Translations under genes and position numbers: made by a program
Source of the DNA: Abditibacteriaceae bacterium
Lineage (GTDB): Bacteria > Armatimonadota > Abditibacteriia > Abditibacteriales > Abditibacteriaceae
NCBI GenBank assembly: GCA_031425655.1
Contig: JANPJS010000171.1
Span: 1 to 26,082 of the forward strand
Length of the DNA stretch: 26,082 bases
Direction: 5' to 3'
Shown here: in pieces, positions 2,182 to 25,983 of the stretch
Position numbering within the stretch: the stretch's first letter is position 1
How the letters are laid out: each line of letters begins with the position of its first letter
The notes under the pieces: generated by a model
Told to the model about the DNA's origin: nothing
Seen by the model: only the letters and a program-made list of their open reading frames with translations
The model's database searches: none

Positions 2182-4265
2182 AAAGCTTCACTTTCGGGAA
2201 TATCGGGCTTCTTGCTCAGTGTAAAGTAGAACGTCGTGCCCTGCCCTGTGCCGGGGGAAACCGCCCAAGAACGGCCTCCATGCGCTTGCGCGGCGCGTTG
2301 CACGATGCTCAGACCGATGCCGCTGCCCGGCGCGGCGGAATTGCCCACGCGCTGAAAAATGCCGAAGGCTTTTTCCAAATGGCCAGACTCCAAGCCCAAC
2401 CCGTTATCGCTGACCGCGAACTGCCAGTGCGTCGGCGTTTCTTCGCACGAAACCGCCACGGTGCGCGATGGTTTGGCCGGGTCGGAGTATTTAATGGCGT
2501 TGTCGAGCAGGTTTAAAAACATCTGGCGCACGCGCTTGCGTTCGCAGCAAACGGCGGGCAAATCGTGCGCGATTTCGATTTGCACCACTTTCGCTTGCGC
2601 CTGTAAAGTCAGTTCGGCGGCGGCTTCGCGCGCTAATTGGCGCGTGTCGGCCATTTCCCATTGTTCGCGCACGCGCCCGATGCGCGAAAGCTCGATGAGG
2701 TCGCCGATTAAACTTTCGAGCTGCTTGGAATTGGAACCGATGCGCTCTAAATAATGCTTGGAATCGGCGGGTAATTCGTCGCCGAAGTCTTGATGCAGCG
2801 CGTCCAAATAGCCTTGAATCGAAATTAAAGGCGCCTTCAAATCGTGCGATACGGTATAAACGAATTCTTCCAGTTCGCGGTTTTTTGCGCGAAGCTGCGC
2901 GCCGCTGACGCCCAGCGCATCGTGCGCCGCGCGCAGTTGCTCGGCGCGCTGCTCGCTTTCGCGCAACAAACGCGCGTTGTCCAAAGCGACGGCCACTTGT
3001 GCCGCGACGTGCTGCAATAATTCGCTTTCAGCAGGCTGCCAATCGCGCGGCGTGGTGCATTCGAGCGCGATTAAACCGGCGGTTTGGTCGCGCAAAAGCA
3101 GGGGCGCCGCCAAAAACGCGCGCGTGCCCTGCGCGTGCAGCGAACTTTGCGCCGGGTCGGGCCAGTTTTCGCTGTCGGGGATGCTCAGCACGTCTTTGTT
3201 TTGCAACACGCGATGCCACGTTTGCGGCAAGGCTTGCGGCGTGCAGAGCGCATTTTCGTGCGGCGCGATGCCGGGCGCCGTCCATTGAAAAAACAGAGGC
3301 CCGCCGTCCTCGGACTGGCGAGGCAGACACAGCACGCAGCGCGAAGCATTTAAGGCCTCGCCCAATTCGCGCGCTGTGGTTTGCAAAACCGTCGCGGTAT
3401 CCAAAGAGCGCGTTACGGCGCCGGTGATGCGTCCCGAAAGGCGTTCGCGCTCCAATCGCGCAGCAATCGAGGTCGTCATGGCGTTCATGGCGCCGGTCAC
3501 TTCGCCGAATTCATCGTTGCTCACGACGGGCGAAGGTGCGTAGTCGCCGGCTTCGATGCGCCGCGAACGCTCCACCATCGCCGACAGCGGCAAGGTGACC
3601 GAGCGCGCCAAACCGACGCCAATCCAGATGGCCATAATCAGCGCGGCGGCTTCCATCGCTAAGACGCTGAGCGTCGAATACCAGCGATAGCGGTCGGCGC
3701 CGGCTAAGGCGTTTTTCCGGTAAAGCATCAGGTCGTCGCGCGCGGCGCCGAAGGCGCTTTCGGCCTCGTCGAAGGAACGCCACGTCGTTTGCGCGTCCGG
3801 CGCTTTGGGGTCGCGTAACGCAGTGGCGAGTGGTTCGGCGACTTCGCGCTGCCATTGCAGCCCGGCGTCGTAAAATTCGGTCAGGCGCGTTTCCAATGAT
3901 TCGGATGGCGACTGCGCGATGGCACTCTGATACGCTTTCTCGAACGCGGCTTTGGCGTCACGATAGGGCATCACGAAGGCTTTTTCGGCTTCATCGGCAC
4001 TCGTGGCCGGCGCGCCGGAATCGTTGCTTTGCAGCCATAAATGCAGGCCGCGCGCGTGATTGTCCATCGCTTCGGCGCTTTGTTTCATCTGCGTGGAATC
4101 GGTCAAAAGCGCATCGGTTTTAGCGATAATGTCGCGGTATTGCTCGACGGTATCGGCGGTGACGCGGAATTGATACCACGCCAAAAGCGCCAGCAGAAAC
4201 GGCACGAAAAGCAATCCGAGACGCACGCGCCACGCGATGTTCCAGCGACGAGGAGAGAGGATCAT
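2178..4265 (-). CDS. Membrane sensor histidine kinase (extracytoplasmic helical sensor-HAMP-GAF-HisKA-HATPase)
   Basis: Two hydrophobic helices, HAMP (NDEFGEVTGAMNAM), GAF (FLAAPLLL...AAQVAVALDNARL), H-box VSHDLKAPL, N-box NLLDNAIKY, DNGLG and GSGIGLSI boxes. Confidence 0.92.
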   Translation of the reverse strand: MILSPRRWNIAWRVRLGLLFVPFLLALLAWYQFRVTADTVEQYRDIIAKTDALLTDSTQMKQSAEAMDNHARGLHLWLQSNDSGAPATSADEAEKAFVMPYRDAKAAFEKAYQSAIAQSPSESLETRLTEFYDAGLQWQREVAEPLATALRDPKAPDAQTTWRSFDEAESAFGAARDDLMLYRKNALAGADRYRWYSTLSVLAMEAAALIMAIWIGVGLARSVTLPLSAMVERSRRIEAGDYAPSPVVSNDEFGEVTGAMNAMTTSIAARLERERLSGRITGAVTRSLDTATVLQTTARELGEALNASRCVLCLPRQSEDGGPLFFQWTAPGIAPHENALCTPQALPQTWHRVLQNKDVLSIPDSENWPDPAQSSLHAQGTRAFLAAPLLLRDQTAGLIALECTTPRDWQPAESELLQHVAAQVAVALDNARLLRESEQRAEQLRAAHDALGVSGAQLRAKNRELEEFVYTVSHDLKAPLISIQGYLDALHQDFGDELPADSKHYLERIGSNSKQLESLIGDLIELSRIGRVREQWEMADTRQLAREAAAELTLQAQAKVVQIEIAHDLPAVCCERKRVRQMFLNLLDNAIKYSDPAKPSRTVAVSCEETPTHWQFAVSDNGLGLESGHLEKAFGIFQRVGNSAAPGSGIGLSIVQRAAQAHGGRSWAVSPGTGQGTTFYFTLSKKPDIPESEAL

Positions 4266-4267
4266 AG

Positions 4268-4333
4268 AGAGTTTTGAGTTTTGAATTTTGAATTTTGAAT
4301 TAAATACAATTCAAAACTAAATCTCAAAACTCT
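4268..4333. repeat. Inverted heptamer tandem repeat (TTTTGAR)n
   Basis: AGAGTTTTGAGTTTTGAATTTTGAATTTTGAATT followed by the complementary arm AATTCAAAACTAAATCTCAAAACTCT. Confidence 0.8.
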
Positions 4334-5663: not shown

Positions 5664-5796
5664 TTTCAATAGAACACGGAGCTTCGCTATCCTGCCCAGA
5701 GGGCGCCCGAAACGACACGGATTTACACAGATCAATCCAAAAACCGTGTTAATCCGTGGTTGTTTCCGCGTAGCGAAGCTCCGTGTCCCATTGAAA
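5664..5796. repeat. Long palindromic intergenic element, copy 1 (carries a 19-nt insertion at 5690-5708)
   Basis: Arms TTTCAATAGAACACGGAGCTTCGCTA... and ...TAGCGAAGCTCCGTGTCCCATTGAAA. The core CACAGATCAATCCAAAAA is shared with 13551-13660. Confidence 0.85.
5690..5708. mobile_element. 19-nt micro-insertion TCCTGCCCAGAGGGCGCCC
   Basis: Breaks the symmetry of the palindrome. The opposite arm and the sister copy at 13573-13576 both show CGCG here. 18/19 identical to 14893-14911. Confidence 0.65.
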
Positions 5797-5815
5797 ATAA
5801 GGGCATCGCAAAAAC

Positions 5816-6517
5816 TTAGCGATGCTGATTAGCCTTTGCGACCGCGACGGCGGCGCGAATCGCTTCTTCCAATCGCCGCGCGGCGACTTCGCGTTGTTCG
5901 CGCGCCGGCAAATGCGCTAAATCGGCGAAAGTAATCGCTTCGCCGAAGTGAACGCGCACCGGCGATAACGTCGGGCGCGGCTTGACTTCTTTATAAGGCA
6001 GCACTTTGTCCAATCCGACGATGCCGGCGGGCACAATCGGCACTTTGGCGCGCAGTGCGATCATCACGGCGCCGGGCAGAACCGGCCCCATTTCGCCCGT
6101 CGGAGAAACGCGCCCTTCGGGAAAAATCACCAGACCGTAGCCGCGTTTGAGAATCTCTTCGCAGCGGCGCAGCGCGGCGCGGTCGGGGCTGCCGGGGTCA
6201 ACTGGAAAGGTTTGCCAGAACGAAATCAGCGGCCCGACGATGCGGTCGGCGAACAGTTCGCGCTTGCCCATCCACCACAAAGGCCGGAACACGCTCGACG
6301 AAATCAGCGGCGGGTCGCCGTCGGAAGTGTGATTCGGGCAAATCAAAACCGCGCCGCGCACCGGGATATTTTTGCGTCCGGTTACGCGCAGATTCGGCGC
6401 GCAGCAGCGCACGACGGTTCGCACAATCAGATGCACAATCGGCCCGAAAATGTGAAAGTTACGGGTAGATTCCAGATGCTCGTCCGGCTTCAATTCGTAG
6501 GTTTTTTTCTCGCTCAT
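5816..6517 (-). CDS. plsC: 1-acyl-sn-glycerol-3-phosphate / lysophospholipid acyltransferase
   Basis: NHTSDGD (HxxxxD) motif, FPVD, IFPEGR and VPIVP blocks of the PlsC family. Confidence 0.88.
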   Translation of the reverse strand: MSEKKTYELKPDEHLESTRNFHIFGPIVHLIVRTVVRCCAPNLRVTGRKNIPVRGAVLICPNHTSDGDPPLISSSVFRPLWWMGKRELFADRIVGPLISFWQTFPVDPGSPDRAALRRCEEILKRGYGLVIFPEGRVSPTGEMGPVLPGAVMIALRAKVPIVPAGIVGLDKVLPYKEVKPRPTLSPVRVHFGEAITFADLAHLPAREQREVAARRLEEAIRAAVAVAKANQHR

Positions 6518-6527
6518 GTCTCATTCA

Positions 6528-7271
6528 ATGCTATCATTTTTCGCGCGGCTGTTGGCTTTCCTTTGCGCTATCGCTGTTCTCAGCGGCCCGGCCCACGCCG
6601 CCAAAACCCTCAAGTTTGGCGGCTACGAATGGCAGGTGCGCCAATCCGCTTTAGCCGGGCCGGGGCCGAATCTGTGGGACGAAAACAACGTTTGGCTCGA
6701 TGAACAAGGCCGGATGCACCTGAAAATCGCGCTCCGCGACGGCAAATGGAGTTGTGCCGAAGTAAATCTCAAAGAAAATCTGGGTTTTGGGCGTTATCAA
6801 TGGCAAATCGTCGGACGACCCGACAAATTTGATCCGCAAATCGTGCTTGGCTTGTTCAACTATACGCGCCCCGAAGTCGGCCCGGACGGCACCAATGAAA
6901 TTGACATCGAGTTCGCGCGCTGGGGCGATGCCGCCAAACCGGTCGGTAATTTTTCCGTCTGGCCTGCCGTCAAAGAAGTCAAATACCAAACCCATCCGTT
7001 CGATTTCAAACTCGATGGCGATTACACCACGCAGCGTTTCGATTGGTCATCGAAAACTGTGAATTTCCAAATGCTCGGCGGCCACCGCGACGACGATAAA
7101 AACGTCATCGAACAGTGGAAATACGCGCCAAAAGAGCCGGAAAAGTTCATCGCGCAGCAGGCGTTGCCGGTTCATCTCAACTTCTGGCTTTTTCGCGGCA
7201 AGCCGCCGCAAAACGGGCAAGAAGCCGAAGTCATTATCAGCAAATTTTCGTTCACGCCGGAGAAAAATTGA
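6528..7271 (+). CDS. Secreted GH16-like glycoside hydrolase (beta-glucanase-like)
   Basis: Signal peptide ending AHA, ENNVWLDEQGRMHLKI, GFGRY and catalytic EIDIE motif. Start taken at the second ATG because 6516 overlaps the plsC start. Confidence 0.8.
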   Translation: MLSFFARLLAFLCAIAVLSGPAHAAKTLKFGGYEWQVRQSALAGPGPNLWDENNVWLDEQGRMHLKIALRDGKWSCAEVNLKENLGFGRYQWQIVGRPDKFDPQIVLGLFNYTRPEVGPDGTNEIDIEFARWGDAAKPVGNFSVWPAVKEVKYQTHPFDFKLDGDYTTQRFDWSSKTVNFQMLGGHRDDDKNVIEQWKYAPKEPEKFIAQQALPVHLNFWLFRGKPPQNGQEAEVIISKFSFTPEKN

Positions 7272-7299
7272 TTGGTGCAACTGCTGTGTGACAGCAAAT

Positions 7300-10200
7300 T
7301 CACAAATACTTCTGCAAAACCGCCGCTTTTTGCGCGCCGACTAACGCCAAACGTATTTCAGCTTCGGCGATTTCGCTTTCCCACACTTCGATTGCGGCAA
7401 CCAGTTTTTCCTGCTCAGCTAAAGGAGGCAGAGGGATTTTTATCGCTTCAATGCGATTCAGCGCCAGTTTGGGCACACCCATCTGGTGAGTTTTGTCTTT
7501 AATTTGCTGCTGCCCAAATTCCGACGCCAAACATTCCACCAAAAACTTTTTATGAAGTGCGTTTTTGTCGAGAATGACGAGTTTGGCGGCGTTTTCCGTC
7601 AGCGACTTTCCGTCTAATTCGGCGGGAACCGTTCCCACCAATCCGATTGTTCCGGCGATGGAAATGTAAACGTCTTCGGCTGAAATGACGTAATTTTTGA
7701 TCTGAGCGAAAATCTCCGGCGTTATGTATTGCAGGCCCGATAAACCAACCGATTTGTTTTTGAAGTCGGTAACGCGGATATAGGGATAATCCGTCGGCGT
7801 GTTGAGCAAAGAATAGCCTTTGGGCACTCTTTTGCCACCTTTAACAGCACAAACTTTCTCTATTTCAACCGATTTTCCCGCTGCGAAGCTTTGAAGGCTG
7901 GCGTTGATTTTCTCAACTATTTGCATCCGCGCCTTTTCGATGCTGTCCTGCGCTGCTGCCGCGTCCGCGTCGATTGCTTCGCATTCGGCGACGATTTGTT
8001 GTTGCGTGGTGGCATCGGCAATCGGGAGCTTTACCTCTTCAAAGGTTTTCATGGTGATTGCGTCGAATTTGCTGCCGGTTGCCTGTGATTTAAGCTGCTG
8101 GATTTCTCGCTTCAAAACGTAAAAGAGATAATCGTTTGAAACTGAGTTCTTAGCGCGCAAGCCGTAGCAGGATTGATTGAACGCCATTGGCGTGGTTAAT
8201 TGCGCCATCGCGCCGACGGTGCCGCGCGCTGAGATAATAATGTCGCCAGGTTGAAGCAATTTCGTGCTGCTGCTGTCCAGTCCCACCTGCGTGATGGATT
8301 TTTCGGCTTCGGATACAAAGCGAACTTTCTTGCTGAAGTCCGCAACGCTAAGCCACGGAATATCGCCGTCCCAATACAGAGCATTGTTCGTGTCGGGCGT
8401 GCCGCCGCTGATAATGTCCACAATGTCGGAAACGCTTTTGAGCGGCCACTTACTCTGCACTGCTACCGACTTTTTCGCAGCCAGCGCAATCTGCTTCTCG
8501 AAATCGTCGCGCGAAAAGTCGAGCAAATCGGGCAGCGGCAGCAGCGAAAGATATTCTTCGAGCGCCGTCGGTATGGCGTTCAAATCGCCTTTAAAATTAG
8601 AAGCGATGGCGGCGTTGATTTTTTCAGCGTTGTCGCGGTTGGTTTCGTCGTAAAGCGGCGTGAGGTGGCGGCCTTGCGCGTCTTTTATTGGTTTGATGCC
8701 TTCGTCGCCTTTGGCGCCGCTCCATTCGTAGCCGAGAAATTTCCGCCGGTCTTTGGTTTCGGTGGGACTGGTAACAATCAGCACCCGATTCGGCTGCTGC
8801 GTGGCCAGAACGAAGTGCAGCAAATTATCGCGTTCGATGGCTTGCGCGAAGGCCAGAAATTTCTTATTGAGTTCAGCTTCTTGCTGAGCGGCGGGCTTGG
8901 CCTGAAAGCTTCGTTGCTTTTTCAAATTCTTAACGTCCGTGCTGTTATCGAAGGTGCGGCGGTATTTCGCAAAGGTATCGTGCGAAAGCAAAGCGACGGC
9001 GGGCGCGCCGGTCAGCAGCGTTTTATAATCGGCGGGCGCAAGGCCAATGTGCGCCGCATATTGGTCAATGAGGTGTTCGTCTTGATAATCCGTTTGGCCC
9101 GCGTCATGCGCAAACCACGCGGCCACACGCTCTTTGTAGTGCTGCGCGGTGTCGGGGTTGGTCGCTTTGCGGCGCAGAAACAAAGTGACGGTGTTGGTGT
9201 TGGTTTTCCCAAACGTGCCGGGTGGCAATTCGGCAATGGCGACAAGATCGAAGAATTGCAAAAGAATTTCACGGGCGCGAATGTAGGTGCCGCCGCCGTT
9301 GGAAAGCAGGCTGGCCGGAAAAATCACAGCCGCGATGCCGCCGGCTTTGAGCAGTTGCTTAGCGCGTTCGAGAAAAAAGGTTTCGATGCTGTTGGCCGTA
9401 TCGAGATTGTTGATGGTTTCGGTGAGCGCATACTTGGCGCGTTCGATTTCGGGCAAAGTTTCGAGAAAGCCCTTGACGCTAAAAGGTGGATTTGCCACCA
9501 GCAAGTCGAAGCTGTCGTCTTCGATTTCAGGATGCATCGCGTGGCTGGGAATCAACCCGTCGCCATAGCAAATTTTAATGCGCGGCTGCCCATACATAAA
9601 CGCCGACACTTTAGCGATTTTGGAAAGGCGATACTCCTTTTCGATGCCGCAAATGGCGGCGTGATAATCCTCGATGTCTTTTTGCGGATGGTGCTTTTCG
9701 GCCAACGGCTTGATTTGCAGCGCCAATTCGGTGAGAAAGTGCCCGGCGCCGCAAGCGTAGTCAACGGCTTTGGGAGGCGCGGCACTGTTTTGCACCAGCG
9801 TTTCCAGCGGCAGGCTGCTCAGCAGAAAACGGCAAATCGGCGTCGGCGTGAAGAACTGCCCTTCGCTTTGCTTGACGCCCTGATCGAGAAAGCCCTCGAA
9901 CATATCGCCGAGAAACTGATTGTGCTGATGGTCACCAATCAGTTTGATCTCCTGCCACATTTGCAGAATTTCCAAAAGCACGGTGGCGTTCTGATAAAAG
10001 AGTTTTTCGTTATGCACGTCAATAAACGAAAAATCGTTGTTGGTGAAAAACTTCTGGCGGCGAAACAAATCCCAGACGGCGCGCTGCGTGGCGTCCGGGT
10101 CGCGGCGGACAAAGCGCAGCGCGTTAGTGACTTCTTTTTCGTTGATGTAGGTGATTTCTTCGCCGAGGAACTTGCCCATGCCGGCTTTGTAAAGCAGTTG

Positions 10201-11127
10201 CAGCCGGTCGAACAAATCGAAATGGGTGTCGTAGGCCACGCCTTTCCAATAGAATTTTAGGTCGTCGGGATTTTCGGTTTCATCCACCAGCTTGCACAAA
10301 AAGAGATTCACCAGTTTGTCAAAAGCGTTTTCGCGCCCCGATACGTTGTGTTGGCGTAGGATAGTGGCAAAGACGTGATATTTCTTTTGCCGGTCGGAAT
10401 CGGAAATAGGACGCAGGTCGTTCTTAGTGTATTTGTTTTTTCCGATGTGATAGGCCTGAATGCTCGGCTCGAAGAGGCCGCTTTCGGTGTAAGCAAATTT
10501 ATAGGTTTCGCGCCAGACGTTGAAGCGGGCGCGCACGTCGGCGGCATCGCGGAAGCCTTTTAATTTCTCGTTGTCACGCAGATAGTCGGCGTTATCACGG
10601 TGGACGACGACGTGGCTGACGTAACACAGCGCGCCATCCTCGATAAACGAGGCATACAAGCAAAGAAACTGCGTTTCGCTGATTTGCTGCGCGTAGCTGA
10701 AAAGCTGTCCGCCATCTTGAAGCGTGTCTTTCCAAGCGCGCTCAAATTCGCGTCCGGCGGTTTTACATTCGATAAGCAGTAGTGGCTTGGCCTTCTTGTC
10801 CTTAACCAAAATATCGGCGCGCCCGCCGCTGGCGCCGTGCCCCAGCTTCCATTTCGGCTCCAATTCAATATCCTGCGGATGGTAGCCTTTTTCCAGTAAA
10901 CGATGAACGCATTCAAAAACCACGAAATTTTCCGGCGCGGAAAAATTGCACGTCTGGCGCTCATTAACAGTCAATCCGTTGGCTTCGGGATAAATCAACT
11001 GCTCGTTTGCCACATCCACCGAAAGCCACGTCGCCCCGATGATTTTCGTCCACAAGCCGTCCCCCTGTGTAAAACCGAGGGCCGGTAAGAATTCGAGAAA
11101 GGTGTCTTTGTTAATTGGATTACCCAT
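7300..11127 (-). CDS. Single-chain restriction endonuclease-N6 methyltransferase-specificity fusion (Type IIG/IIB-like, two HsdS-type TRDs)
   Basis: N-terminal PD-(D/E)xK-like GRADILV...LIECK. Methyltransferase motifs GQFFTP, DYACGAGHF (motif I) and NPPF (motif IV). C-terminal two HsdS-like repeats (GGTP...IPWL...ARGTVG; YIRVTDF...IAGTIG...IPLPPLAEQ). Confidence 0.9.
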   Translation of the reverse strand: MGNPINKDTFLEFLPALGFTQGDGLWTKIIGATWLSVDVANEQLIYPEANGLTVNERQTCNFSAPENFVVFECVHRLLEKGYHPQDIELEPKWKLGHGASGGRADILVKDKKAKPLLLIECKTAGREFERAWKDTLQDGGQLFSYAQQISETQFLCLYASFIEDGALCYVSHVVVHRDNADYLRDNEKLKGFRDAADVRARFNVWRETYKFAYTESGLFEPSIQAYHIGKNKYTKNDLRPISDSDRQKKYHVFATILRQHNVSGRENAFDKLVNLFLCKLVDETENPDDLKFYWKGVAYDTHFDLFDRLQLLYKAGMGKFLGEEITYINEKEVTNALRFVRRDPDATQRAVWDLFRRQKFFTNNDFSFIDVHNEKLFYQNATVLLEILQMWQEIKLIGDHQHNQFLGDMFEGFLDQGVKQSEGQFFTPTPICRFLLSSLPLETLVQNSAAPPKAVDYACGAGHFLTELALQIKPLAEKHHPQKDIEDYHAAICGIEKEYRLSKIAKVSAFMYGQPRIKICYGDGLIPSHAMHPEIEDDSFDLLVANPPFSVKGFLETLPEIERAKYALTETINNLDTANSIETFFLERAKQLLKAGGIAAVIFPASLLSNGGGTYIRAREILLQFFDLVAIAELPPGTFGKTNTNTVTLFLRRKATNPDTAQHYKERVAAWFAHDAGQTDYQDEHLIDQYAAHIGLAPADYKTLLTGAPAVALLSHDTFAKYRRTFDNSTDVKNLKKQRSFQAKPAAQQEAELNKKFLAFAQAIERDNLLHFVLATQQPNRVLIVTSPTETKDRRKFLGYEWSGAKGDEGIKPIKDAQGRHLTPLYDETNRDNAEKINAAIASNFKGDLNAIPTALEEYLSLLPLPDLLDFSRDDFEKQIALAAKKSVAVQSKWPLKSVSDIVDIISGGTPDTNNALYWDGDIPWLSVADFSKKVRFVSEAEKSITQVGLDSSSTKLLQPGDIIISARGTVGAMAQLTTPMAFNQSCYGLRAKNSVSNDYLFYVLKREIQQLKSQATGSKFDAITMKTFEEVKLPIADATTQQQIVAECEAIDADAAAAQDSIEKARMQIVEKINASLQSFAAGKSVEIEKVCAVKGGKRVPKGYSLLNTPTDYPYIRVTDFKNKSVGLSGLQYITPEIFAQIKNYVISAEDVYISIAGTIGLVGTVPAELDGKSLTENAAKLVILDKNALHKKFLVECLASEFGQQQIKDKTHQMGVPKLALNRIEAIKIPLPPLAEQEKLVAAIEVWESEIAEAEIRLALVGAQKAAVLQKYL

Positions 11128-11170
11128 GAAGTTCAGTCGCCAACACTAATTTGTTGATGATGTTCCATCC

Positions 11171-11179
11171 ATTTTATCA
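11171..11179 (-). promoter_or_regulatory. Candidate extended -10 promoter of the R-M gene
   Basis: Minus strand TGATAAAAT (TGnTAnnnT), about 44 nt upstream of the start codon. Confidence 0.4.
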
Positions 11180-11246
11180 CGCGCCTAAATTACCCAAGAC
11201 ACAAAACAAACCACTCTGCGGTTATGTAGTGGCAGGATGAAAGCGA

Positions 11247-12323
11247 CTACTTTTTAGCTGTAGGTTGATTTTTCAGACAATCGGCGTCCGGTTCCGCCGG
11301 TTTGCCGACTTCTTCGACGGGATGCGTGAAAAGATAGCGCCAGACAGGTTCAAAGAGGAATTTGCCGGCGGCGTCTTTGGGCGAAGCGCCGCCGGGCGTG
11401 ACCGAAGAGTGCGCGCGATTGGCATCGTTTTTCACATCGGCGGCAGAAATGAGGCGCCGGCTGTTGTCGTAGGGCGGCGCCGTATTATCCACATTCACGA
11501 TGGCGCCGAATTGGTGCAGGCCGAGCAGTTCCCACGAGCGACAGTAGTGATCGCCCGTCCAGCCGCCGTCCAGCACATGACTGAAACCGAAGAAACGATT
11601 GGCGGGCGTTGCGGAAGGCAGTGCCTGCCATGTTTCCTGTTGATCGCGCGGCCCGCAAAACATCACAACACGATCCACGCGCTGATGCTTGGCAAAGCGT
11701 GCCGCCGTCGTCGCGCCGTGCGAAGCGCCCGCCAAAATGACGCGCTCCCAACGCAGTTCCTGCCCGTTTTCGGCCAGAAAATAGTCCCAGCGGCCCTGCG
11801 GATTTTCTTTGGCCAGCCATTTCACGAATTGAAAAGCCCGTTCGCGGATGGCATCGGGCCGGGGAATGTCCACCACGTCGCTGAAATCCTCGCCGGTCGC
11901 CGCTTCGAGGCGAATTTTTCCGAGAAACTTGTCATCGCCGGGCGGCGCCGCGTTGCCGAATTTACCAAACCAGCCATTGGCATAATGCACTTGAATCGCG
12001 TGTAAACCGTAGCTCGACACGCGCTCGAATAACGGCGCGCTGTGTCCCATCAGCCAGATAACGAGCCTGCCGCGCGGCGCCACGCGCGTGTCCACGCAAG
12101 CGTTTTCTATGTCCTGCGGCTTGCCGTCCTTCTCGAAGAGAAAACCAATTTCAGGATGGGCACGCGCCCGTTCATCAATCTGACTGGCGCGGGCCTTGAA
12201 TTCATAGCGGCGCGGCGCCGGATCGTTGAATAGCAGCGGCACCTCGGCAGCATACGCCGGCGCGTGCGCGGTGCATAACAGACCGGCTAAAGCGAAAATA
12301 ATTTGTTCCATTGGGAAGAGCAT
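11247..12323 (-). CDS. Secreted alpha/beta-hydrolase-fold protein (BPSS1187-like)
   Basis: Signal peptide (AYA), GASHG nucleophile elbow, FGFSHVLD and AHSSV motifs. Family name is from recall, not from a search. Confidence 0.65.
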   Translation of the reverse strand: MLFPMEQIIFALAGLLCTAHAPAYAAEVPLLFNDPAPRRYEFKARASQIDERARAHPEIGFLFEKDGKPQDIENACVDTRVAPRGRLVIWLMGHSAPLFERVSSYGLHAIQVHYANGWFGKFGNAAPPGDDKFLGKIRLEAATGEDFSDVVDIPRPDAIRERAFQFVKWLAKENPQGRWDYFLAENGQELRWERVILAGASHGATTAARFAKHQRVDRVVMFCGPRDQQETWQALPSATPANRFFGFSHVLDGGWTGDHYCRSWELLGLHQFGAIVNVDNTAPPYDNSRRLISAADVKNDANRAHSSVTPGGASPKDAAGKFLFEPVWRYLFTHPVEEVGKPAEPDADCLKNQPTAKK

Positions 12324-12332
12324 AGCAACGCG

Positions 12333-13526
12333 CTATTCCTTCGGATAATCGCGCCAGAGCCAGCGCAACGTGTCAGGAAAAATGGCGCGGCCATGCGTGT
12401 GGCTGTGCGCGCCCTGGCCAAAGACGAATTTGTAATCGTAATTCGCATAAGCCAGCGCCAGCGCCATCTGCTGATTGGCGAGGGGCCAGTTGCCGTTGGC
12501 GTTGTCTAAATCGTTGACGCCGTCCTGCAAAAAGACGCGAATCGGTTTGGGCGGCGTTTTGCGAATCAGAGCCTCGTAGTTGTGGCCGCCTTCGCGCATC
12601 GTCGCGCCGTGGGCGATGTTGGTAAAGCTGCCAATCCACGACACGACTTTGGCGAACTGATCGGGCTTTTGCCACGCGACCGTGAAGGCGCAAATGCCGC
12701 CGCTGCTGGCGCCACAAATCGCGCGAGAAGCCGCGTCGTGCTTCAATTTCGTGGTTTTCTCGACTTCGGGCAGGATTTCTTCCAATAAAAAGCGCGCGTA
12801 TTGATCGGAAAGCGTATCGTATTCAAAACTGCGGTTCTTTTTGTCGTTCGGCAAGACGCCGGGATCAATAAAAACGCCGACTGTGACCGGAATTTCGCCC
12901 TTGTGAATCATGTTGTCGAAGACTGTAGGCACCCAGTTTTTGTAGCCGCCGCCATCTTGAAAGACCATCACGCAGGCTGGTTTTGCGTCCGTATATTGCG
13001 CGGGAACGTAAGTCCACCAACTGCGCTCGGTATTGGGGAAAATCGTGCTCTTCCAACGTGGCATTTCCCGAAGGGTGCCTTTGGGCGCGCCCTGTTCAGT
13101 CGCTTCGACGGGCGTTTTATAAACCTCCAAAAAGTAGCCTCCGATGGCTTTGGTTTTATCGTCCATTTCGTAGTGCCATTTCATGCCGGTGCCGTCGGGC
13201 AGCGTTGCCGCCGCCGTCCACACATCGGAGGCGCCGAGTTTGGCTAAGGGCAAGCGCCAATCGCTGGTGCTTGAAACCACGCTGATATTTTGCGCGCCGG
13301 GCACTTCAATGGCCCAGACCACATCGAGTTGGTCAATTTTCGGATTCGGCCCCTTTTTCAAATTTTCCCCTCCGAACCAGCCGCGCAGACGATTGGCAAG
13401 CTGCATCGCGGCCTCGCCCTGCGGTTTGGCAGCTAAGGCCGCCTGCGCGGTTTGGGGCGTTAGAGGCTCCTGCGCGTGCAACGGCGCTATTAAAAGCGCG
13501 GCGGTTAAGCCAATGATTAATTTCAT
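12333..13526 (-). CDS. Secreted enterochelin-esterase-like alpha/beta hydrolase with an N-terminal beta-sandwich domain
   Basis: Signal peptide, YVPAQY, VFQDG, RSFEYDTLSDQYARFL, GASSGG nucleophile, C-terminal GAHSH. Good RBS (AAGGAAAGGA). Confidence 0.85.
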   Translation of the reverse strand: MKLIIGLTAALLIAPLHAQEPLTPQTAQAALAAKPQGEAAMQLANRLRGWFGGENLKKGPNPKIDQLDVVWAIEVPGAQNISVVSSTSDWRLPLAKLGASDVWTAAATLPDGTGMKWHYEMDDKTKAIGGYFLEVYKTPVEATEQGAPKGTLREMPRWKSTIFPNTERSWWTYVPAQYTDAKPACVMVFQDGGGYKNWVPTVFDNMIHKGEIPVTVGVFIDPGVLPNDKKNRSFEYDTLSDQYARFLLEEILPEVEKTTKLKHDAASRAICGASSGGICAFTVAWQKPDQFAKVVSWIGSFTNIAHGATMREGGHNYEALIRKTPPKPIRVFLQDGVNDLDNANGNWPLANQQMALALAYANYDYKFVFGQGAHSHTHGRAIFPDTLRWLWRDYPKE

Positions 13527-13550
13527 TTTGTTTCCTTTCCTTAAACGATC

Positions 13551-13660
13551 AATGGAACACGGGCCTTCGGCACGCGGAAACAGCAGAGATTTTCACAGAT
13601 CAATCCAAAAATCCGTGTGAATCCCTGTCGTTTCCGTGTGCCGAAGGCCCGTGTTCCATT
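13551..13660. repeat. Long palindromic intergenic element, copy 2 (no insertion)
   Basis: AATGGAACACGGGCCTTCGGCACGCGGAAAC ... GTTTCCGTGTGCCGAAGGCCCGTGTTCCATT. Homologous to 5664-5796. Confidence 0.85.
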
Positions 13661-13682
13661 TAAAAGTTCTAAACTGCGCCCC

Positions 13683-14696
13683 ATGAAAAAAGTGCTTTCG
13701 CTGCCGCCGCTCTCGCATATGGAAATGATGTTCGCGCCCGATGTGTGGGCGGCGCTCAAAAGCGAATGCGACGTTGTGGAAAACACCCTTGCGCGCCAGA
13801 AAACCTCGCAGGAATTGCGCGAAACCATCGGCGACTTTGACGCGGTTTTGACCGGATGGGGCAGTCCGCGTTTCACGCGCGAGGTTTTGCAAGCTGCGCC
13901 CAAATTGCAAGTCGTGGCGCACACGGCGGGCACGCCGCGCGCGATTTTCGACGACGACGTGGTAGGCGATATTCTGATTCCGCGCGGCATCGCCGTTTAT
14001 TCAGGCGCGGGCGGCATGGCGCACAACGTGGCCGAAATGACCCTCGGCCTGATGATCATGGCCGCGCGCCGCCTGCCGCAGCACGAGGCGGCGTTTCGCA
14101 GCGACAAAAGAGGCCGCGCCAACTTTCCGCGCAACGAACGCGGCTTAATGGGCGCGACGGTCGGACTGGTTTCGGCGTCGTTAGTTGGTCGTCAGGTGCT
14201 TCGCGTTTTGCAGCCGTTCGGCTGCGAGATTTTGCTTTACGATCCGCTGATTTCAGAAGAGCAGGCACGTCATTTGGGCGCGCAATTGGTGGATTTGGAC
14301 ACGCTGTTTTCACGAAGCGACATCGTCAGCCTGCACGCGCCGAATTTGCCGGCCACGCAGAAAATGATCGGCGCCGCGCAACTGGCAAAACTGCGCGACG
14401 GCGCGATTTTCGTGAACACTTCGCGCGGCTCGGTCGTGGATCACGACGCGCTGCTGGCCGAGTGCAAAAGCGGGCGCATCGCCGCAGCCTTAGACGTGAC
14501 GGAACCGGAGCCTCTGCCGCCCGATAGCGAGTTCTGGCATCTGCCGAACGTGATTCTCACGCCGCACCTCGCCGGACAAGGACAGGCCGGCTTCGAGCGC
14601 ATCGGCGCCGGTGCCTTGCAAGCTCTGCGCGACTGCTTCGCCCAGCGCCCCATCGCCGGCGCCGTGCCGCTGCAACGCTGGGAATTCGTGGCGTGA
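13683..14696 (+). CDS. D-isomer-specific 2-hydroxyacid dehydrogenase
   Basis: TGWGSP, NVAE, DIVSLHAP, NTSRG (Arg), DVTEPEP (Glu) and TPHLAG (His). Start moved to MKKV because 13617 lies inside the palindrome. Confidence 0.9.
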   Translation: MKKVLSLPPLSHMEMMFAPDVWAALKSECDVVENTLARQKTSQELRETIGDFDAVLTGWGSPRFTREVLQAAPKLQVVAHTAGTPRAIFDDDVVGDILIPRGIAVYSGAGGMAHNVAEMTLGLMIMAARRLPQHEAAFRSDKRGRANFPRNERGLMGATVGLVSASLVGRQVLRVLQPFGCEILLYDPLISEEQARHLGAQLVDLDTLFSRSDIVSLHAPNLPATQKMIGAAQLAKLRDGAIFVNTSRGSVVDHDALLAECKSGRIAAALDVTEPEPLPPDSEFWHLPNVILTPHLAGQGQAGFERIGAGALQALRDCFAQRPIAGAVPLQRWEFVA

Positions 14697-15039
14697 ACAG
14701 CGATTTTATCTCTCGCAAAGACGCAAAGACGCCAAGAAAACGTTGAGAATCAACCTTTTTGGCCGCTTCTTTATTCTTTGCGCCTTTGCGTCTTTGCGAG
14801 AGACAATTTTCCCATGCATCTCGAACTCGTCGTCGCACGCTATCAAGTGCAACGCTGGGAATTCGTGGCGTGAACAGCGATTTTATCTCTCGTCCTGCCC
14901 AGAGGGCACCCGACGCAAAGACGCGAAGAAAACGTTGAGAACCAACCTTTTTGGCCGCTTCTTTATTCTTTGCGCCTTTGCGTCTTTGCGAGAGACAATT
15001 TTCCCATGCATCTCGAACTTGTCGTCGCGCGCTATCAAG
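14671..15039 (+). repeat. Tandem duplication (177 nt + 192 nt) of gene end, intergenic palindrome and next gene start
   Basis: Copy 1 is 14671-14847 and copy 2 is 14848-15039. They differ by a few substitutions and the net +15 micro-insertion. Each contains a TCTCTCGCAAAGACGCAAAG...CTTTGCGTCTTTGCGAGAGA palindrome, with the left arm interrupted in copy 2. Confidence 0.92.
14893..14911. mobile_element. 19-nt micro-insertion TCCTGCCCAGAGGGCACCC
   Basis: Present only in copy 2 of the duplication, replacing CAAA (14716-14719 in copy 1). Confidence 0.7.
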
Positions 15040-16668: not shown

Positions 16669-16825
16669 CAGTCTGAAAAGTCTGATTAAGACCATTCAAA
16701 GAAGAGTGTGGTCATCCTGAGCTTGGGAAGGATCTTGGCATAATAGATTCGATCACGCCGAGATCCTTCGCAAGCTCAGGATGACACTCCGCTTACTTTC
16801 GGCGTTGATGCAACTTTTTAAACTG
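16669..16825. repeat. MITE-like palindromic element
   Basis: Inner inverted repeats 16711-16739 and 16757-16785 (GTCATCCTGAGCTTG.GAAGGATCT.GGC, 27/29). Weak outer inverted ends CAGTCTGAAAAGT / ACTTTTTAAACTG (11/13). Confidence 0.7.
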
Positions 16826-22904: not shown

Positions 22905-22975
22905 AGGGGCTGGGGGTTAGAGGCTGGAGGCTGGTATTTCCGATTCCAGTCTCCAGCCTCTAATCCCCAGCCCCT
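22905..22975. repeat. Inverted heptamer tandem repeat (GGCTGGR-type)
   Basis: AGGGGCTGGGGGTTAGAGGCTGGAGGCTGG paired with CCAGTCTCCAGCCTCTAATCCCCAGCCCCT. Confidence 0.8.
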
Positions 22976-24878: not shown

Positions 24879-25026
24879 GGGGGTTTTGGGTTTTGGGTGT
24901 TGGGTGTTAGGTTGTGGATTCTGAACCAAGACGATCATGCCCACACCCACGACATAGCACCCAAAACCTAACACCCAAAACCCAACACCCAAAACCCAAA
25001 ACCCAAAACCCAAAACCCAAAACCTA
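24879..25026. repeat. Inverted heptamer tandem repeat (GGGTTTT)n / (CCCAAAA)n
   Basis: About five GGGTKTT-like units, a spacer, then about nine CCCAAAA-like units between tadB and tadC. Confidence 0.88.
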
Positions 25027-25983
25027 ATTATCGAAATCCAACAACTTCTTAATCCAGTAAATGCCGCCCATTTGCATGAAAAACCACACGTAAAGCCCAA
25101 TGCCGCCTTCGGGCGTGTTGGTGAGCAGGGCCATGTATTCGGGATTGATGATTCTCAGCATGACCGCGATGCCGATAGGCATACAGATCAACATACCGCC
25201 GCTGATGCGACCTTGTGCCGTCAAGGCGGCGATTTCGCGGCGCAGGCGAATGCGGTCGCGGATAGTCACGGCGATGCTGTCCAACATCACCGACAAGTTG
25301 CCGCCGACCGAAAGCTGGATATTGGTGGCGCTGACCGTCATGTCGTAGTCATACGAATTGACGCGCTCGGATAATTGCGTCAAAGCGCGCTGCGTGTCTA
25401 AACCAAGCTGCACAAGGCGAATTACGCGCAGGAATTCGTCTTTAATCGGCGGCTGTAATTGCTGCGAGGCCATGTCCAAGCCTTGCACGAACGAAAAGCC
25501 GCCGCGCAGCGCCGAGGCGATAATCGCTAAGGCATCGGCCAATTGGTATTCCAATTTGGTTTTTCGCTGGCTCGATAGAAAACCTAAAATCCAGCGAGGA
25601 ATATTGAAACCGAGCCAGATCGAAACCAGCACGATGCCGGTGCGCCGCACCATGGAAAACAAGCCGCCGTCATTCGGCATCCGGTTCAAGGCGACCAATC
25701 CCACTAAAATGGCAAGGCCGACGATCACCAGATTGATCATGTAGAACTCGCTGGGCTTGATTAAAAGCCCGGCGCTGACCAAATCGCGCTCGATTTTCGA
25801 GGACTTGCCTTTGCCGCGCAGCAGGCGCGAGATGAAAGCGAAGCGTTCCTCTTTATCGCGGGTCACAGCGACTTGTGCCGCCTCGACCGAAAGTCCGTCC
25901 TCGGTCACCGCCGAGCGGCGCAGTCGGGAAGCTACTAAAAACAACACATTAAGGCCGATCAAAACCCAGACTGCGGTTGCCAT
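25024..25983 (-). CDS. tadB: Tad pilus assembly protein TadB (T2SS F family)
   Basis: QLADALAIIASALRGGFSF, PPIKDEF, VGGNLS, TIRDRIRLRREIAALTAQGRISG and NPEYM. RBS AAGGAG. Confidence 0.92.
   Translation of the reverse strand: MATAVWVLIGLNVLFLVASRLRRSAVTEDGLSVEAAQVAVTRDKEERFAFISRLLRGKGKSSKIERDLVSAGLLIKPSEFYMINLVIVGLAILVGLVALNRMPNDGGLFSMVRRTGIVLVSIWLGFNIPRWILGFLSSQRKTKLEYQLADALAIIASALRGGFSFVQGLDMASQQLQPPIKDEFLRVIRLVQLGLDTQRALTQLSERVNSYDYDMTVSATNIQLSVGGNLSVMLDSIAVTIRDRIRLRREIAALTAQGRISGGMLICMPIGIAVMLRIINPEYMALLTNTPEGGIGLYVWFFMQMGGIYWIKKLLDFDN

Follow-up and report, generated by a model that had tools for sequence, protein, structure and literature searches.

The closest described counterparts of the element reported here are the small dispersed repeats (SDRs) of cyanobacteria, of which SDR1-8 of the Nostocaceae were reportedly described by Elhai et al. 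in 2008. SDRs are gene-less dispersed repeats of 21-27 nt that are known only from a cyanobacterial subgroup, lie embedded in heptamer repeats, in other repeats or in themselves, and have a structure supported by compensatory changes. To our knowledge, no enzyme that moves 20-nt mobile repeats has come to light since their description. Miniature inverted-repeat transposable elements (MITEs) are 70-300 bp long, carry terminal inverted repeats and duplicate their target. SDR5 is described as inserting precisely between bases 3 and 4 of HIP1 (PMC4390886). Repetitive extragenic palindromic (REP) sequences are described as carrying a GTAG or CGTC tag and as occurring inside 'target palindromes' and intragenically (PMC3733652, PMC8266576, PMC3116915); their transposase TnpA(REP) is described in one of these as cutting between C and T and needing a 3' C for transfer (PMC8266576). 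We report here a replace-type element of about 20 nt that is present twice in a 26,082-nt stretch of DNA from an Abditibacteriaceae bacterium of the Armatimonadota (contig JANPJS010000171.1 of assembly GCA_031425655.1; hereafter the window). The element is dispersed, recently mobile and orientation-specific; its right (3') junction is precise, its 5' junction is ragged by one or two bases, and its arrival usually removes five target bases without any duplication.

An earlier note, made from the window alone, had pointed to a 19-mer at 5690-5708 and 14893-14911, and these are indeed the only exact matches in the window (shuffled patterns gave a mean of 0.02 matches at 3 or fewer mismatches). 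The genome search that the note proposed returned many copies rather than just two. In the source genome (G000, in which the window is contig C171; 5.98 Mb, 97% complete) a 17-nt core occurs in 235 exact copies, in 71 with one mismatch and in 30 with two, and five shuffled control patterns gave no exact and 0-1 one-mismatch matches there. The invariant unit is an 18-nt core, CTGCCCARAGGGCRCCCG, preceded on its 5' side by one or two variable junction bases. The note had drawn a 4-nt replacement with a fixed GA after the insert. The G that follows the 19-mer is, however, conserved in 94% of 303 copies and is thus part of the element, so that 20 nt replace 5 nt; the next base, A in the window, comes from the target and is A in 32% of copies. 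At the two R positions of the core all four base combinations are present in this genome, and the four common variants contain no internal stop codon, as the note had observed for the window copies. The consensus has neither terminal inverted repeats nor a GTAG or CGTC tag, and the first and last five bases of the 20-mer are near-repeats that are identical in a few copies. The element does fold, as had been claimed, but the hairpin is weak, with a stem of 4-5 bp, energies of -3.2 to -4.3 kcal/mol and fold z scores of -0.2 to -1.7; the stem is nearly invariant, its changes being limited to a T-A/T-G exchange and a loop change. The element had no match in Rfam and no meaningful match in a plasmid search.

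The junctions follow a common scheme. In the usual event a target X-t1..t5-Y becomes X-n1-n2-core-Y, with five target nucleotides lost and none duplicated. Usable flanks are available for 315 copies in the source genome, and for the 212 that have an empty paralogue the net gain is 15 nt in 164, in line with the value first read from the two window sites, and 14 nt in 33; in a test by contexts, a gain of 15 was found in 87 of 123. The first lost base, t1, is C in 35 of 39 independent site classes (background 0.30, p about 1e-14) and in all 59 distinct +15 contexts, in which n1 is T in 29, C in 15, A in 14 and G in 1, and n2 is C in 58. The identity of the first junction base varies with that of the 5' neighbour of the site (p 0.002, and p 0.001 outside the Armatimonadota). 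The earlier idea that the one variable base of the 19-mer copies the target did not survive: this base has no significant association with the flanks, it is A at a CGCGG target in sequencing run X2, and CAAAG targets are found with either base. Within the Chloroflexota (pieces of genomes G303 and G350) t1 is G in 10, C in 8 and A in 4 of 22 contexts, and n2 shares the purine or pyrimidine class of t1 in 21 of these; the C rule is thus specific to a lineage, and it is at the target that the left junction is formed. There is also a slight tendency towards A at X, C at t4 and G at t5 (uncorrected p 0.02-0.03). The idea that the junction bases are palindromic (P-type) works for CA|TG but breaks down in most other contexts. 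These statistics omit the chance-like coding matches L022, L023, L034, L042, L045, L056 and L064 and the duplicate L008, and one test also leaves out L091, which later clustered with an interrupted transposase.

Both window copies lie in REP-like palindromes, which belong to unrelated families, and each site has the two internal empty controls that the note described (Table 1). The palindrome around the first copy lies between a response-regulator/kinase gene and an acyltransferase gene, and contigs of run X1, possibly the source sample, match this site with 0 differences. The second copy occupies the latter of two tandem copies, the first of which spans the end of a 2-hydroxyacid dehydrogenase gene, an empty version of the palindrome and the start of a DUF3431 gene; among the matches listed there was no X1 contig for this site and its duplication junction. 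Since the tandem copies differ at four further bases, the note's suggestion that the second site was filled after a recent duplication stands as only one possible reading, and the two copies may be alleles of two strains joined by recombination.

Table 1. Element copies, host palindromes and empty sites in the window
Feature	Position	Strand	Remarks
Element copy 1, 20 nt	5690..5709	+	2 junction bases + core 5692-5709; replaces CGCGG-type 5-mer
Host palindrome 1, REP-like inverted repeat	5664..5796	.	fold z -9.0
Empty site, opposite arm of host 1	5766..5770	-	CGCGG on minus strand
Sister palindrome, same host family as host 1	13551..13660	.	empty in source genome
Empty target CGCGG in sister palindrome	13573..13577	+	filled in one run X2 contig of related strain
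Tandem copy 1, 177 nt, empty	14671..14847	+	empty host palindrome 2, target CAAAG at 14716-14720
Tandem copy 2, 192 nt, filled	14848..15039	+	4 further substitutions vs copy 1
Element copy 2, 20 nt	14893..14912	+	2 junction bases + core 14895-14912; replaces CAAAG
Host palindrome 2, REP-like family unrelated to host 1	14886..14995	.	fold z -5.1
Empty site, opposite arm of host 2	14984..14988		reads CAAAG

Comparison with other strains and genomes indicates that the element has moved recently. One 256-nt contig of run X2 is 97% identical to the window over 13357-13597, a span that includes unique gene sequence, and has the sister site filled; the contig has a depth of 2.8 and differs from the window by the 15 inserted and 8 other letters. 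Of two related phages, one has the element in its portal gene, while the other has that site empty. Congeners lack the site-2 duplication and, at the orthologous spacers examined, both host palindromes (G002 and G003 in the case of host 1), from which it follows that hosts and element are younger than the genus. We regard it as very probable that this is a recently mobile micro-element. The note's picture of a very small, usually frame-preserving, recently mobile and SDR-like element is borne out by some 300 copies, at least 39 independent target classes, an orthologous filled/empty pair and in-frame five-residue insertions in proteins.

The exact core is present in 13 of 301 Armatimonadota genomes, namely the source genome, 11 of 26 other family members and G072. 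The Thermomicrobiales (Chloroflexota), the order of G301 (titled Thermomicrobia), have it in 15 of 121 genomes, 12 of them with 8-89 copies (13 of 119 positive and 10 multi-copy without the unpublished G315 and G334), and at least two Verrucomicrobiota genomes have 1 and 3 copies in repeat-like contexts. Scans of GTDB and of metagenomes found at least 87 and at least 124 stretches with the core, respectively, with no cyanobacterium among the 80 titled GTDB matches listed. The distribution is patchy, bimodal and cross-phylum. That several phyla share one and the same core implies that it has spread horizontally, plausibly by way of the phages and insertion sequence (IS) elements that carry it.

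Within the source genome only 12 of 306 copies lie in predicted genes, though 85% of the genome codes (by a home-made gene caller). A strict test for exact 16-mers places 222 of the 290 intergenic copies next to repeats, which account for 24% of the intergenic DNA; judged by eye, the remainder are mostly in diverged members of the same repeat families. Unrelated REP-like palindromes and heptamer arrays of many kinds serve as hosts, and some have been struck at more than one position; there are at least 39 independent target classes, and five host families are only 14-34% filled. The left-arm position noted at both window sites is favoured where the partner arm is empty (55 left vs 17 right, with no partner found for 197 of 304 copies) but is not required. 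Both arms are filled in 34 cases, so copies outnumber events. The copies show no bias towards the sense or antisense orientation (72 vs 60).

The in-frame insertions of five residues that had been predicted are seen, by comparison with paralogues, in two Calx-beta domains of the source genome and in transposase genes. Pfam confirms rve and DDE_Tnp_1 domains for four of the interrupted transposase genes, and the interrupted families are presumed from their motifs to be IS1, IS3, IS110, IS256, ISL3, ISAs1 and Tn3. One conserved codon of ISAs1-like genes has been struck in G000, twice in G350 and in a metagenome contig, by elements with differing R variants, and the IS256-like and ISL3-like genes have each been struck twice at one site. 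Eight viral contigs carry the element, four of them twice, at sites that include prohead-protease and portal genes, and a tRNA-Arg is interrupted within a seven-tRNA one-strand array (C61:85-845 of the source genome). Insertions of these kinds show that hairpins are not required. At 32 coding or phage insertions the local fold is no stronger than in the surroundings (mean rank 0.59, with 6 of the 32 ranking in the top tenth), so that the strict hairpin or cruciform targeting proposed in the earlier note is not supported.

A number of further observations concern unusual copies and the repeats around them. A 23-nt variant with a six-base loop is present in 3 copies in the source genome (on C101, C306 and one more; a net gain of 18 if the same rule holds), as is a 22-nt variant with an extra AG. 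Fold-back derivatives, in which the left flank of a partial element reappears behind it as the reverse complement, are found at C253:390, C86:7686, C126:7414 and on C267, and are consistent with template switching in host repeats. At C25:8810(-) and C13:12491(-) the left and right flanks come from different host families, reflecting either recombination between element copies or misassembly. The REP-like and heptamer host repeats themselves lie in-frame in ordinary genes, in the manner of Rickettsia palindromic elements (RPE), with the element nested in them (C51, C109, C114, C128, C150, C202 and C267 in the source genome; loci L011, L086, L126, L127 and L134). Five copies lie within 1.8 kb of one metagenome contig (L281/L282), in non-palindromic contexts. 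REP-like repeats of the source genome also harbour a distinct MITE, about 210 bp long, that has terminal inverted repeats and apparently duplicates 10-12 bp of its target (C28:22513-22723, C135:7889-8099, and on C138, C39, C42, C165, C194 and C235). The window itself contains at least six further unrelated REP-like or heptamer repeats, none with the element (17-130, 1732-1797, 4256-4301, 16711-16785, 22905-22975 and 24881-25030), and, in a lower-GC stretch at 7300-11127 (-), a 1275-aa open reading frame that by eye resembles a fused restriction-modification enzyme.

With moderate confidence, we favour an account in which a non-autonomous, recently mobile micro-element with an 18-nt core is patched into a 5-nt staggered cut by a DNA enzyme acting in trans. 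The precise right end, the constant 5-nt loss, the t1-matched n2 and the T-biased n1 fit a cut of this kind patched with a single-stranded copy. As the junctions suggest, a nuclease would cut the target with a 5-nt stagger, and the 3'-OH of the right junction would either be joined to a single-stranded copy of the element's bottom strand or prime the synthesis of one, with the small hairpin probably looping out. The first target base would then determine one added base, through matching or copying; a further base, usually an A (T on the top strand), would be added without a template, and the ends would be sealed with loss of the overhang. Targeting would be loose, with copies surviving in dispensable DNA such as REP-like repeats, IS and phage genes, the tRNA array and repeated surface domains, and later multiplying with their host repeats by duplication and arm-to-arm conversion.

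Several observations count against this account or limit how far it can be pressed. No enzyme was found and no intermediate was seen, the staggered cut being read from the junctions alone. The lengths are looser in the Chloroflexota, where 29 of 61 contexts are at +15, 14 at +14 and 18 at other values, C runs making some of these ambiguous. For the Armatimonadota taken by themselves, the junction-base association falls short of significance (p 0.09), and at target positions 4 and 5 the preferences are slight (p about 0.03 in each case, without correction). The empty alleles are mostly paralogues rather than ancestors. The X2 pair is one low-depth contig and could reflect conversion from another filled copy, and the enrichment in repeats cannot separate targeting from survival and amplification.

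Other explanations have to be weighed against staggered-cut patching. Candidate enzymes were scored over panels of 45-48 genomes of our own choosing, in which kin are not independent and in which the incompleteness of metagenome-assembled genomes (MAGs) weakens each gene absence. RNA-templated insertion, by target-primed reverse transcription akin to a natural prime editing, would call for a divergent, unassembled or phage-transient reverse transcriptase, and we think it unlikely. An untemplated A that ends the new bottom strand fits the general behaviour of reverse transcriptases, the T-A or T-G stem pair at the variable position would be tolerated by RNA, and an RNA route was reportedly once proposed for SDRs. 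The Pfam reverse transcriptase family RVT_1, however, gave no match in G000, nor in 7 of the 19 other positives (G001, G002, G350 and G354 among them) and is present in 12 of 12 negative family genomes, and thus does not track the element; the lack of orientation bias and of an Rfam match also speaks against RNA. Single-strand transfer by an HUH enzyme, whether a RAYT/Y1 transposase or something relaxase-like, recognising the small hairpin seems to us also unlikely. The T-headed junction resembles an IncP-type relaxase nick motif, though a literature search for this found nothing. The C rule does echo the cleavage site and 3' C requirement of TnpA(REP) (PMC8266576). The C is lost here rather than kept, however, and there is no GTAG or CGTC tag. 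We know of no Y1 transfer that deletes 5 nt. The source genome has 6 Y1 matches (Y1_Tnp), but Y1 was not found in 7 of 10 positive Thermomicrobiales genomes and was found in 12 of 14 negative ones. Within the Thermomicrobiales panel there seems to be an inverse relation between Y1 transposases and the element (found in 3 of 10 positive and 12 of 14 negative genomes), for which shared ancestry may be the whole reason.

The constant sequence and constant net gain are also what an excision footprint of a larger transposon or integrative element, leaving 15 extra bases, would look like, and the near-repeat ends of the 20-mer would suit one. Against this stand adjacent and nested copies 20-45 nt apart and the failure to find any larger motif-ended element among some 300 copies in the source genome, in 2.38 Mb of G303 or at the other loci (no IS catalogue was compared), and we consider a footprint likewise unlikely. 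A library adapter or assembly artefact is a negligible prospect. In MAGs, contigs do often break off close to a copy, and a few copies have flanks from two different host families, which may be misassembly; yet two positions in the core vary freely, the core is present in single-contig and few-contig assemblies (G011, G009 and G305), diverged phages (84% identity) have it at one site in common, as do two MAGs (L052 and L055), and the element is lineage-restricted, with reversed-pattern controls giving 0-1 matches per genome. A more radical alternative, which we hold to be doubtful but less so than these, is that the 18-mer is a self-sufficient selfish oligonucleotide without a dedicated partner gene, which would overwrite five bases with itself by hijacking some conserved repair or replication function of its host. 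Were this so, a bare sequence arriving on a phage or IS would suffice to infect a new phylum, and the reaction would be a natural sequence replacement by one of the smallest mobile units known.

The search for a driver was negative throughout, with the GIY-YIG, four-helix-bundle, relaxase, IS110, LigD/Ku and primase-polymerase families not profiled. The earlier note had looked to a transposase, HUH nuclease or reverse transcriptase gene flanked by the motif, and we found none (relaxase families not being among those profiled). Recurrent neighbours of the copies are ordinary families or transposase genes interrupted by the element, with no recurrent Y1. NucS (EndoMS) leaves 5-nt overhangs at mismatches, and break repair by this route was rejected, the gene being present in 1 of 48 genomes. 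GxxExxY proteins (E<=1e-15) are found in 8 of 10 positive vs 4 of 14 negative Thermomicrobiales genomes, but also in 10 of 12 negative family genomes, and DUF559 proteins (E<=1e-28) in 8 of 10 vs 8 of 14 in the Thermomicrobiales and in 6 of 10 positive vs 8 of 12 negative Armatimonadota genomes; both were rejected. Comparison of the source genome's proteins with 2.38 Mb of the 5.2 Mb of G303 (46%) revealed no unusual shared protein, those at 48-71% identity being housekeeping proteins, repeat-associated small proteins and an SRAP-like protein (labels assigned by eye). The sharp presence and absence of the element across related genomes in two phyla should make the enzyme findable by comparative genomics and the reaction testable, and the junction signature (a precise right end, a 5-nt loss and one or two added bases) is a readable one. 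Insertion by natural replacement, with no duplication, would add a new chemistry to those of mobile DNAs and hold interest for making small, precise edits. The element also adds five-residue peptides to proteins and interrupts transposase, phage and tRNA genes.

Our literature search, which left out most subscription journals, turned up no account of this motif or of any micro-element that deletes target bases. Among known systems the element most resembles the SDRs (discussed in PMC4390886, PMC2884548 and PMC3116915): it is about 20 nt long, gene-less and dispersed, inserts precisely, and nests in heptamers, in other repeats or beside itself. It also has the filled and empty sites that show recent mobility. 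Unlike SDRs, however, it has no fixed target octamer and is found in the Armatimonadota, Chloroflexota and Verrucomicrobiota rather than in one cyanobacterial clade. Its 18-nt core and 19-20-nt insert fall below the 21-27 nt of SDRs, and it deletes five target bases and adds junction bases, whereas no such deletion is known to us for SDRs. The SDR1-8 sequences are probably unrelated to it. We have not filed it as an SDR because of the differing clade restriction and because SDRs are not known to delete target bases. With REP and REPIN sequences it shares a short, hairpin-containing form, a mostly intergenic and sometimes in-frame location, an occurrence inside other palindromes and a C-dependent step; it differs from the REP/REPIN-RAYT system in having no GTAG or CGTC tag, a stem of only 4-5 bp and no RAYT linkage, and from REPs in that it parasitises REPs of many families and replaces target bases. 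Like MITEs and RPE (PMC3733652), it is non-autonomous and inserts in-frame into proteins, but unlike MITEs it has no terminal inverted repeats and produces a 5-nt loss in place of a target duplication. It is set apart from editing by retrons, diversity-generating retroelements (DGRs) or group II introns by the failure of RVT_1 to co-vary with it. The micro-element is a real, active-looking variant of a rare but known kind; it crosses phyla and is unusual in that its junction replaces target bases.

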